The notes under the pieces were generated by a model. The model was given only the letters and a program-made list of their open reading frames with translations. It had not been told where the DNA came from and ran no database searches. Shown here in pieces: positions 11,347 through 12,450 of a DNA stretch of 64,000 nucleotides (within the stretch, counting starts at the first letter, position 1; every line of letters starts with the position of its first letter). Source of the stretch: a virus (Duplodnaviria > Heunggongvirae > Uroviricota > Caudoviricetes); IMG/VR virus record IMGVR_UViG_2724679293_000007, positions 32,001-96,000 of that record. One strand, written 5' to 3'. The translations under genes and the position numbers were made by a program.

Positions 11347-11389
11347 AAAGATAAAGCCATCGATAGAAATATTGATGGCTTTATGTACT

Positions 11390-11962
11390 CTATTTATACA
11401 ATACAACACCGCTCTTTTTAGTAATATATGTGCAGTTCGATGGTATATCTTTATTTATAAAAGACATTGCACCTATTTTTACATTATCCCCAATTTTACG
11501 TGATAATCCAATGATGCAACAATTAGCTCCGATATCAACGTTATTACCAATTTTTACTCTTGAACCAGGCATGTCACCATCTATCTGTCCAATGGTAGTA
11601 TTCTGCCGTAACACCAGATTTTCACCAGCATCAACAGCAAAATGAACAACAATTCCAGCATGATGGGGAATTGTTAACCCTTTTCCAATATTTGCGCCCA
11701 ATCCAATTTCACAACCAAATTTGTTAATTATTTTACTGTTTAACTTTTTGGCTGCTTTCTTATGTAATTTATTACCATTAATATGCATTTCATTAGCCAA
11801 TCTCCACCAGAAAAGAAAATTCCGATTGCGCTGCCTCTTCTCTCTTAATAGTCGCCAAACATCCATTTTTTCACGCCTGATGACTTCAGCCATCCAATAG
11901 CTCAATAGAGCTTTTGAATTCCCAAAGATGACAAAGTGAATAGCTATTAAGTAACATAACAT
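11390..11962 (-). CDS. Hexapeptide-repeat (LbH) acetyltransferase, WcaB/CysE-like; true start may be an internal Met
   Basis: Motifs GANIGKGLTIPHHAGIVV and repeated hexapeptide units IGNNVDIGANCCIIG / IGDNVKIGAMSFI; strongly AT-rich. Confidence 0.7.
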   Translation of the reverse strand: MLCYLIAIHFVIFGNSKALLSYWMAEVIRREKMDVWRLLREKRQRNRNFLFWWRLANEMHINGNKLHKKAAKKLNSKIINKFGCEIGLGANIGKGLTIPHHAGIVVHFAVDAGENLVLRQNTTIGQIDGDMPGSRVKIGNNVDIGANCCIIGLSRKIGDNVKIGAMSFINKDIPSNCTYITKKSGVVLYK

Positions 11963-12427
11963 ATTGCAATTGCCTATATTTTTGGTTTCTATGGTTATAT
12001 ATCGACATTATAATTAAAACAATAAGCATCAGTGTGTTACTGCGTTCCTGCTAAACTAAACCAACGCACAATGTAAACACAAATATTAATTTTAAACTGA
12101 GCACTAAAGGGATGTCAATATTGTATTGATAATAAGTTGCAAGATTGCCACTACTTTCTATATTTTGGGATGCAATAATTTATATTTTATCTATTCAGTG
12201 TTTCTTTGGGCTTATTAAGGATGTCATTATTAATTTATGGCTTGCCATTTCTATACATATCTATTAAAAATTTTGATTTGTCTATTGAAAATAGATTTAA
12301 TTGATTGGTTTAATTTTTACATGACGCTCTTTAATATAACTTCAGGTATATTAAAGCACATGCATTATATCCAGAGAAAATCAACAAAATTGTTAGCCCT
12401 TATTTGTTGGGCTTATAGATATTAATT

Positions 12428-12447
12428 AAGGCCCGATCCCGGGCCTT
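12428..12447 (-). terminator. Hairpin downstream of U
   Basis: aaggcccg-atcc-cgggcctt stem-loop immediately 3' of the U stop on the - strand, followed by an A/T-rich run. Confidence 0.4.
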
Positions 12448-12450
12448 TCC

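Follow-up and report, generated by a model that had tools for sequence, protein, structure and literature searches.

Why does a host-range switch carry a gene that does not encode a tail fibre component? The question is raised by positions 11347-12450 of a 64,000-nucleotide stretch of viral DNA (positions 32,001 to 96,000 of IMG/VR record IMGVR_UViG_2724679293_000007, Caudoviricetes), referred to here as the window. This 1.1 kb lies inside a P1-like C segment, the tail fibre segment that Cin inverts, and it encodes an acetyltransferase-like protein of 190 amino acids (aa). An earlier note on the window, made from the sequence alone, raised the prospect of a receptor-modifying gene whose orientation flips with the host-range switch. 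The explanation favoured here, with reasonable but clearly incomplete confidence, is a different one. The gene appears to be a passenger (a 'moron') with its own control region in a working C segment, and O-acetylation of a glycan is the most probable role of its product. The structural and evolutionary part of this explanation is close to secure. The glycan-acetylation part, in which we infer both substrate and phenotype, falls a little short of an even chance.

The P1-like tail fibre region was mapped in the window by its open reading frames (ORFs), which run in the order cin, Sv', U', the 190-aa ORF, U, S and R. The features of the segment are as follows.

8544-9104, + strand: cin, serine DNA invertase, 186 aa, intact (ORF map; P1 match)
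9098-9699: left inverted repeat of the C segment, 602 nt, 98% complementary to 13960-14561 (repeat search)
9099-9118: cixL recombination site, crossover 9108/9109, identical to the annotated cixL of P1, TCCTAAACCTTGGTTTAAGA
9152-10768, + strand: Sv', alternative C-terminal part of tail fibre S (ORF map; Pfam Collar domain)
10768-11346, + strand: U'/tfa, lambda-gpK-type tail fibre assembly protein, 192 aa (Pfam Caudo_TAP, E 3.5e-42; phrog_105)
11390-11962, - strand: acetyltransferase ORF, 190 aa (ORF map)
12451-12984, - strand: U, Mu/P1-type tail fibre assembly protein, 177 aa (phrog_136)
12987-15911, - strand: S tail fibre gene, with Sv (12987-14550) inside the segment and Sc (14551-15911) outside it (ORF map)
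13960-14561: right inverted repeat of the C segment (repeat search)
14541-14560: cixR recombination site, crossover 14550/14551, identical to the annotated cixR of P1
15923-16357, - strand: R (ORF map)

It is clear that this is a C segment of the P1 type. The megablast match to the C-segment region of P1 begins at 8538, and 9000-9699 is 97% identical to P1. Phage JL22 and plasmid records annotate the counterpart of the window cin as cin or recombinase. The two cix sites stand in inverted orientation, one at each end, and delimit 5,442 bp of invertible DNA (9109-14550) compared with 4,256 bp in P1. Alternative Sv-U sets that share one constant Sc between 0.6-kb inverted repeats are the mark of the P1 C segment, and the window contains just this arrangement. 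In the window orientation U is expressed together with S, and Sv' is not joined to Sc. The true start of S is likely MNDVTVV at 15911; plasmid p15648-1 annotates the same 2925-bp coding sequence. The cin gene, the P1-identical cix sites, the 0.6-kb inverted repeats, the constant Sc with its two alternative Sv-U sets and an orientation that is polymorphic in nature (see below) are all features shared with the C segment of P1/P7 (Cin/cix), the G segment of Mu (Gin) and similar tail fibre switches that invert.

How does this segment differ from that of P1? The earlier note described an AT-rich insert of about 1.1 kb between U' and U that is missing from the classical C segment. The extra DNA is real. 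Across 11347-12450 the GC content drops from about 47-50% to 27-36% (32% over this interval and 27% in 11963-12427, compared with 47% for the window), and the U' and U stop codons of P1 and P7 lie 28 bp apart, the extra 1.1 kb being absent from both. However, the picture of a simple insertion does not hold. In blastn comparisons the similarity to P1/P7 ends at 9699, which is the end of the inverted repeat, and restarts at 12424. This gap indicates that, relative to P1, one whole arm (the variable part of Sv' plus U') is replaced. Window U' aligns with a tail fibre assembly gene of P1 or P7 over a 66-aa stretch only, at 45%, and window U is 93% identical to the gene that P1 annotates as U prime and 95% identical to Ua/Ub of P7. 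Compared with P1, therefore, the window segment has an arm made of a lambda-gpK-type tfa and a P2-like-type fibre tip, and it encloses a non-fibre passenger gene and 460 bp of AT-rich DNA.

One observation on the tfa gene itself may be recorded here. Positions 11111-11309 (+ strand) give a full-length match to Rfam IS009 (RF02111; 192.7 bits, gathering score 117, E 1.7e-47). The match sits wholly inside the 3' half of the tfa coding sequence, and what RF02111 describes may be no more than conserved tfa sequence of prophages, and not an RNA gene in its own right.

The likely source of the replacement arm is revealed by a further feature.

10155-11954: 1.8-kb block of fibre tip, tfa and acetyltransferase common to P2-like prophages (blastn)

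This block covers the last 200 codons of Sv', the entire U' and nearly all of the acetyltransferase ORF. It matches the P2-like prophage L004 (CP061244.1) at 94.3% over 1800 nt as one uninterrupted block, and 10813-11961 matches L005 at 91.5% (both by blastn). At the protein level, the last 200 aa of Sv' are 97.5% identical to the tail fibre C-terminus of L004 and U'/tfa is 94% identical to its tfa. The gene order in L004 is tail fibre, tfa, convergent acetyltransferase, then gpU and tail genes. The acetyltransferase of the P2-like prophages is a 90% identical protein encoded in the slot just downstream of tfa and convergent with it, the same arrangement that is found here after a move, together with fibre tip and tfa, into a P1-like segment. 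The region upstream of the acetyltransferase differs between the P1-like segment and the P2-like prophages. Because the block is shared with P2-like prophages at 94%, the presence of the gene in the switch is best explained by hitch-hiking. In other words, the gene probably arrived with a P2-like tail fibre cassette, and its location inside an invertible switch, unusual as it is, is probably incidental.

The tfa-proximal slot of P2 (the Z/fun region) is a hot spot for foreign and defence genes. In some P2-like prophages (L010-L012, ~6617-8244) a 222-aa methyltransferase gene lies between a tfa remnant and a full tfa and adjoins an acetyltransferase homologue. This methyltransferase gene is a further passenger at the P2-like site.

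Does the enlarged segment still invert? Orientation was compared in nine intact copies, the window included. In four of them cin is on the Sv'/tfa side (the window, p15648-1, pEND_Eco19025-2 and the C-SRM-3 plasmid) and in five it is on the U side (JL22, the Ec40743 plasmid, pC21-4, pEC5502-2 and pECY44-3). A single acetyltransferase allele (WP_124842119.1) is common to six plasmids drawn from both orientation groups, and the cin allele is identical in five RefSeq records among those six. The inversion breakpoints of JL22 are the ends of the inverted repeats. Near-identical copies in both orientations, with breakpoints at the inverted-repeat ends, indicate that the enlarged segment still inverts in nature. 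The earlier note was thus right to place the cargo inside a Cin-invertible segment, with P1-identical cix sites, an intact cin and both orientations in near-identical plasmids.

Some individual copies call for comment. L024 (pLH09-a-D) was rejected as a third allele and left out of the inference, since its assembly is full of frameshifts in several genes, which suggests assembly errors. In p15648-1 (L021, 6108-6639) a frameshift near codon 129 breaks U in two. In pECY44-3 (L030, 1459-2163) an IS26 adjoins the tfa arm and type I restriction genes.

Not every carrier can invert its segment. The entire 1.1 kb is present in 65 of 5,426 complete Escherichia coli genomes, on a plasmid in every case, as well as in 33 PLSDB plasmids and two phages, JL22 and vB_EcoM-Ro157c2YLVW. 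A P1-like R/gene-16 region occurs in about 461-466 of the genomes, which puts the cargo in roughly 14% of P1-like elements. Most of the 65 carriers (49) share one deletion that runs from inside U (12633) through Sv, cixL, cin and lydC to 8134. It joins Sv'-tfa permanently to Sc and removes the invertase, which leaves the segment locked. The exact 12633/8134 junction is found in 49 of the 5,426 genomes, and the junction matches listed include plasmids of an O26 strain and of isolates from cattle and humans. The deletion can be seen in pO111_2 (L022, NC_013370.1, 6100-6400) and in pF1273-3 (L023). The other 16 carriers keep the full junction and are invertible. The locked copies retain an intact acetyltransferase gene.

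The next question is what controls the gene. Four features around it bear on this.

11351-11384, both strands: bidirectional hairpin separating the convergent genes for U'/tfa and acetyltransferase (folding)
11963-12423: AT-rich non-coding upstream region, 27% GC, with no conserved ORF in 11963-12450 (488 bp)
12118-12089, - strand: candidate sigma-70 promoter of the acetyltransferase gene, TTGACA, 18 nt, TAAAAT (11/12 consensus matches)
12428-12447: GC-rich hairpin with an 8-bp stem, just after the U stop codon (folding)

On the coding strand no other sequence matches the sigma-70 consensus as well as the candidate promoter, which is 127 nt upstream of the ATG. Its two hexamers do not vary among the six copies compared, a 94% variant included, and the most conserved part of the insert is the 400 bp around the start codon. 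At the other end of the gene, the hairpin at 11351-11384, the stronger of the two, has a folding energy of -20.5 kcal/mol on the + strand (z = -6.4) and -17.2 kcal/mol on the - strand (z = -4.1), where a U-rich tail follows, AUCUUUUUAUU. It is likely the terminator of the acetyltransferase gene. The hairpin that the earlier note saw between the gene and U is also real, at 12428-12447, but it is part of the stretch from 12424 that is homologous to P1/P7, and it matches their short U'/U spacer. Since no U tract follows its stem on the - strand, it looks like a weak terminator for R-S-U transcripts.

Other candidates within the insert were rejected. A P1 late (Lpa-type) promoter is represented by a single 8/9 match to the -22 box with a poor -10, for which we estimate about 0.26 matches by chance. 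This match, ATGTTACTT at 11957 (- strand), compared with AAGTTACTT of LPs and LPdar, falls on codons 2-4 of the ORF. If it were real, its transcripts could use only Met33 as a start, and it is probably meaningless. A 62-aa ORF on the + strand (12237-12425) was dismissed as a gene, being frameshifted in pO111_2, and an RNA in 11963-12423 was dismissed with no meaningful Rfam match. The AT-rich DNA at 11963-12423 was found only in P1-like plasmids and phages of E. coli (65 genomes, 33 PLSDB plasmids and 3 phage records). A distant blastn search against phages, plasmids and E. coli genomes placed it nowhere in a chromosome, and two pattern scans of the GTDB species representatives gave no exact 27- or 30-mers of it.

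Because candidate promoter, gene and terminator move together, and because 49 of the 65 carriers are locked and keep the gene, inversion is unlikely to regulate it. Expression in the lysogen is probably independent of orientation. Only late read-through could differ between the two states, coming in the sense direction from R-S-U in the window orientation and convergently from Sv'-tfa in the other. A coupling of cargo and host-range switch, which made the finding look striking, gains no support from the genome comparisons. The earlier note had itself judged the gene to be probably expressed independently of S-U.

What is the 190-aa protein? It had been described as a WcaB/CysE-like hexapeptide acetyltransferase, and the fold is supported by NCBIfam models, a search of PDB sequences, an AlphaFold2 (AF2) model and Foldseek, although the protein qualifies neither as a true CysE nor as a true WcaB. 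The best NCBIfam score is with EpsC (72.8 bits, E 2.7e-20, cut-off 150), followed by CysE TIGR01172 (61.4 bits, E 1e-16, cut-off 210.65), WcaB TIGR04016 (56 bits, E 2e-15, cut-off 194.65) and CysE NF008349 (37 bits, cut-off 397). Every score is far below its equivalog cut-off, and the matches are read as similarity at the family level only. The Pfam Hexapep match is sub-threshold (24.1 bits, cut-off 27). The PDB search matched the beta-helix domains of serine acetyltransferases (best E 6.7e-13), in alignments that begin at chain residues 114-142, and the protein stops 7-12 residues past the last aligned position. The AF2 model, built with 50 homologues (pLDDT 82.5, pTM 0.80), has five N-terminal helices (about 85 helical N-terminal residues) followed by the coils of a left-handed beta-helix. 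In Foldseek the top 50 PDB matches are without exception serine acetyltransferases, the best of them reaching query-normalised TM-scores of 0.6-0.7. We are confident in the prediction of a hexapeptide acetyltransferase with a serine-acetyltransferase-like fold, and the enzyme is probably soluble and acetyl-CoA-dependent. The two findings that would have spoken against the earlier note here, a gene standard in P1/P7 or a protein without an acetyltransferase fold, were not obtained.

The active site is informative. H100, which all 50 homologues retain, corresponds in the alignment to the His in the DH(A/T)TG motif of soybean serine acetyltransferase. E85 corresponds to the Asp in the 'DIHP' segment, is Asp or Glu in the homologues shown, and marks what we take to be the position of the acidic partner of the catalytic His. 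In the alignment to the soybean enzyme (4n69), however, Pro99 takes the place of the Asp that precedes the catalytic His, the His of GDRHP is deleted, and the loop equivalent to GDRHP is variable across the acetyltransferase family. The Asp next to the catalytic His and the Arg-His pair of the GDRHP loop are presumably the residues of CysE that contact serine. The protein is also short (190 aa compared with ~273 aa for CysE), and both the long N-terminal oligomerisation domain and the C-terminal CysK-binding tail are missing. The active-site differences and the length argue against a bona fide CysE, an identity that was rejected along with that of a true WcaB, for which the score is far too low and the context is a prophage tail fibre module and not a wca cluster. 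In summary, the likeness to CysE, WcaB and EpsC lies in the fold (a helical hairpin plus beta-helix), the catalytic His and its acidic partner, and the differences lie in the scores and in a context that is not wca, eps or cys. The database name 'serine O-acetyltransferase' and its Gene Ontology term for cysteine biosynthesis are probably misleading.

The protein belongs instead to a phage family of unknown function, phrog_2154 (E 5.1e-85), with residues 13-190 aligned to profile positions 3-181 of 185. JL22 (L001, ON018986.2, 6044-6520) annotates the gene as 'sacF', of 158 aa, starting at Met33, whereas RefSeq plasmid records use 190 aa. We rejected the shorter version, since the phage-borne homologues conserve residues 1-32 and the match to the PHROG profile already begins at residue 13. 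No good-quality copy has a broken ORF. The ratio of nonsynonymous to synonymous substitution rates (dN/dS) is 0.19 with both the pO111_2 allele (95%) and the P2-like allele (90%), and 0.11 with a 67% homologue, which indicates purifying selection. The family alignment has 13 invariant residues among homologues at 43% to 100% identity.

The gene is far more common than the 1.1-kb insert. A close homologue of the gene alone (~93-95% nucleotide identity) is present in 530 of the 5426 complete E. coli genomes (~10%), and most of these copies are chromosomal, in P2-like prophages beside tfa. The gene is not rare, and the JL22 paper had already noted it. Among viral contigs that encode relatives, tfa lies tail-to-tail 22-99 bp from the stop codon in 67 of 80. 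Moreover, the identities of acetyltransferase and tfa fall together (100/100, 95/98, 90/94, 82/69, 65/50 and 43/39%). The exceptions to convergent tfa have receptor-binding neighbours too. In L101 and L105 the acetyltransferase gene follows tfa in the same direction, and in L105 it also adjoins a fragment of a P22-type tailspike. Another kind of neighbour is an HtrL_YibB gene (Pfam E 1.4e-76) between tfa and a 62% homologue (L095, 1591-2445, and L096, 3753-4610, both - strand). The htrL gene is found at the end of the lipopolysaccharide (LPS) core (waa) cluster of E. coli, and this neighbour hints at an LPS-related pairing. The 57-68% homologues are prophage-borne or adjoin an integrase. The 45-50% homologues (Cronobacter, Intestinirhabdus and Obesumbacterium) are orphan genes whose chromosomal locations are unrelated.

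A few other neighbours were seen in passing. Two prophage contigs with the acetyltransferase carry a gene for a Macro-domain protein (Pfam E 5e-19) directly upstream of tfa, in the usual position of the fibre tip (L086, 1837-2727, and L087, 5208-6017, both - strand). In a chromosomal prophage with a 57% homologue (L006-L009), the acetyltransferase gene is beside a heavy-metal P-type ATPase gene, and a hok/gef-type toxin ORF (5662-5803) lies ~200 bp upstream of it.

How might the system work? In the favoured explanation, the variable Sv' and U' of one C-segment arm would have been replaced by a P2-like-type cassette of fibre tip, tfa and acetyltransferase. Cin inversion would then carry gene, candidate promoter and terminator together, and expression in the lysogen would not depend on orientation. 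The enzyme would O-acetylate a sugar in a precursor of a cell-surface glycan (LPS, O-antigen, enterobacterial common antigen or capsule). This would change the surface of the lysogen and might block superinfection. Glycan O-acetylation is favoured because of the affinities with EpsC and WcaB, the placement beside receptor-binding genes, the HtrL_YibB neighbours and the precedent of NeuO (see below).

Several observations weigh against this explanation. The earlier note spoke of promoter-like runs in the AT-rich DNA; the one invariant 11/12 candidate stands, but shuffled sequence would be expected to give nearly as many such sites (7.1, compared with the 9 found). The searches described above traced no source of the AT-rich 460 bp outside P1-like elements. 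None of the 45-50% homologues is within an O-antigen, capsule or polysaccharide cluster. The carriers span many O-serogroups (O157, O111, O26, O78 and O103), which makes a serotype-specific O-antigen target unlikely. The earlier note had the neighbouring tail fibres recognise LPS; the receptor of the adjacent fibre tip could be a protein. Physical proximity alone could explain the tight linkage to tfa.

What if inversion does matter after all? The enzyme might mask the receptor of one fibre set, with its expression changing with C-segment orientation. In the window orientation the gene is downstream of, and co-directional with, the late genes R-S-U, and in the other R-Sc-Sv'-tfa converges on it. 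The lack of a U tract after the 12428-12447 stem makes read-through plausible, and acetyltransferase and tfa/fibre tip co-diverge across the family. However, late transcription is confined to the lytic cycle, and to mask a receptor would then be of limited value, the cell being about to die. Inside the segment the gene is accompanied by a conserved promoter candidate of its own, the 49 carriers without cin and the second arm keep the gene under purifying selection, and its main home, the P2-like prophages, has no inversion. Such coupling seems quite unlikely. A variant of the idea is that phrog_2154 enzymes are dedicated partners that acetylate the structure bound by the neighbouring fibre tip, leading to self-exclusion. 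The C segment would then pair one of its two fibres with a gene that masks the matching receptor, and late expression would be raised only in the orientation that places this gene downstream of R-S-U. This, too, is unlikely, if worth keeping in mind.

The remaining alternatives concern the passenger itself. It might serve against phages, or raise fitness in another way, by a route other than surface glycans, for example by acetylating a small molecule, a toxin or a component of an invading phage. The same position downstream of tfa in P2-like prophages, the other morons at that site (such as the methyltransferase) and the orphan chromosomal homologues outside glycan clusters are compatible with this. 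Nevertheless, PADLOC-DB 2.0 defence models gave 0 families at E <= 1, the gene is a single small enzyme with no partner gene, and its affinities are with EpsC, WcaB and CysE and not with the antibiotic-modifying Vat-type acetyltransferases; we consider such cargo unlikely. There is very little to be said for a genuine CysE-like enzyme that boosts cysteine synthesis, as the GenBank/PGAP name and 'sacF' imply. Its best sequence and structure matches are indeed serine acetyltransferases, with the catalytic His and E85 aligned, but the cut-offs, the presumed serine-binding residues and the missing domains all speak against it. Equally improbable is a functionless hitch-hiker or decaying gene. The cassette with which it travels is frequently exchanged and neighbours are disrupted in some assemblies (U in p15648-1, IS26 in pECY44-3), but the intact ORFs, the low dN/dS values and the conservation of the family down to 43% identity do not fit decay.

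The closest functional precedent is NeuO of prophage CUS-3, which O-acetylates polysialic acid (the K1 capsule) and protects against K1 phages, and so modifies the receptor of its own phage (PMC3046976, PMC9659370). Both NeuO and the protein described here are prophage-encoded, soluble, left-handed beta-helix acetyltransferases outside a glycan gene cluster. However, NeuO lacks the helical N-domain typical of serine acetyltransferases, it gave no match at E <= 0.01 in the PDB sequence search and it was outside the top 50 Foldseek matches. The phase-variable 5' heptanucleotide repeats of NeuO also have no counterpart here, a search for tandem repeats in 11300-12500 having found none. A second comparison is with the Oac/GtrC-type membrane acetyltransferases of serotype-converting phages. 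In contrast to these, the present protein is modelled as soluble, helical plus beta-helix, and it has no match to their Pfam AT3 (acyltransferase-3) membrane domain. To our knowledge the segments inverted by Gin, Cin, Pin or Min are not reported to contain any other non-fibre gene.

Annotated versions of these sequences are publicly available, and the gene family is common. The JL22 paper named the gene 'sacF' (serine acetyltransferase) and called the reason for its presence unknown; it discusses neither the invertible segment nor a P2-like origin (PMC9603915). In a survey of Citrobacter prophages, 'serine acetyltransferase' is listed among the fitness cargo, with no functional data (PMC6456863). 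Searches of the literature for functional work on the gene in P1-like or P2-like prophages gave only such cargo listings. What is new here is the origin in a P2-like cassette, the split between invertible (16) and locked (49) carriers, the linkage to tfa and the evidence against the name CysE.

What does this mean for P1-like phage-plasmids and their relatives? The locus is a clean example of a tail fibre cassette moving, passenger included, between P2-like prophages and P1-like phage-plasmids, and it reveals that a host-range switch can take up 1.1 kb of unrelated cargo and remain invertible. The acetyltransferase family is widespread, extends to O157, O111 and O26 lineages of Shiga toxin-producing E. 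coli (STEC), and is almost always found beside phage receptor-binding genes. If glycan acetylation proves to be true, then the gene would be a common lysogenic-conversion or superinfection-exclusion factor, with a bearing on host range in phage therapy, on serology and on the surface biology of STEC.

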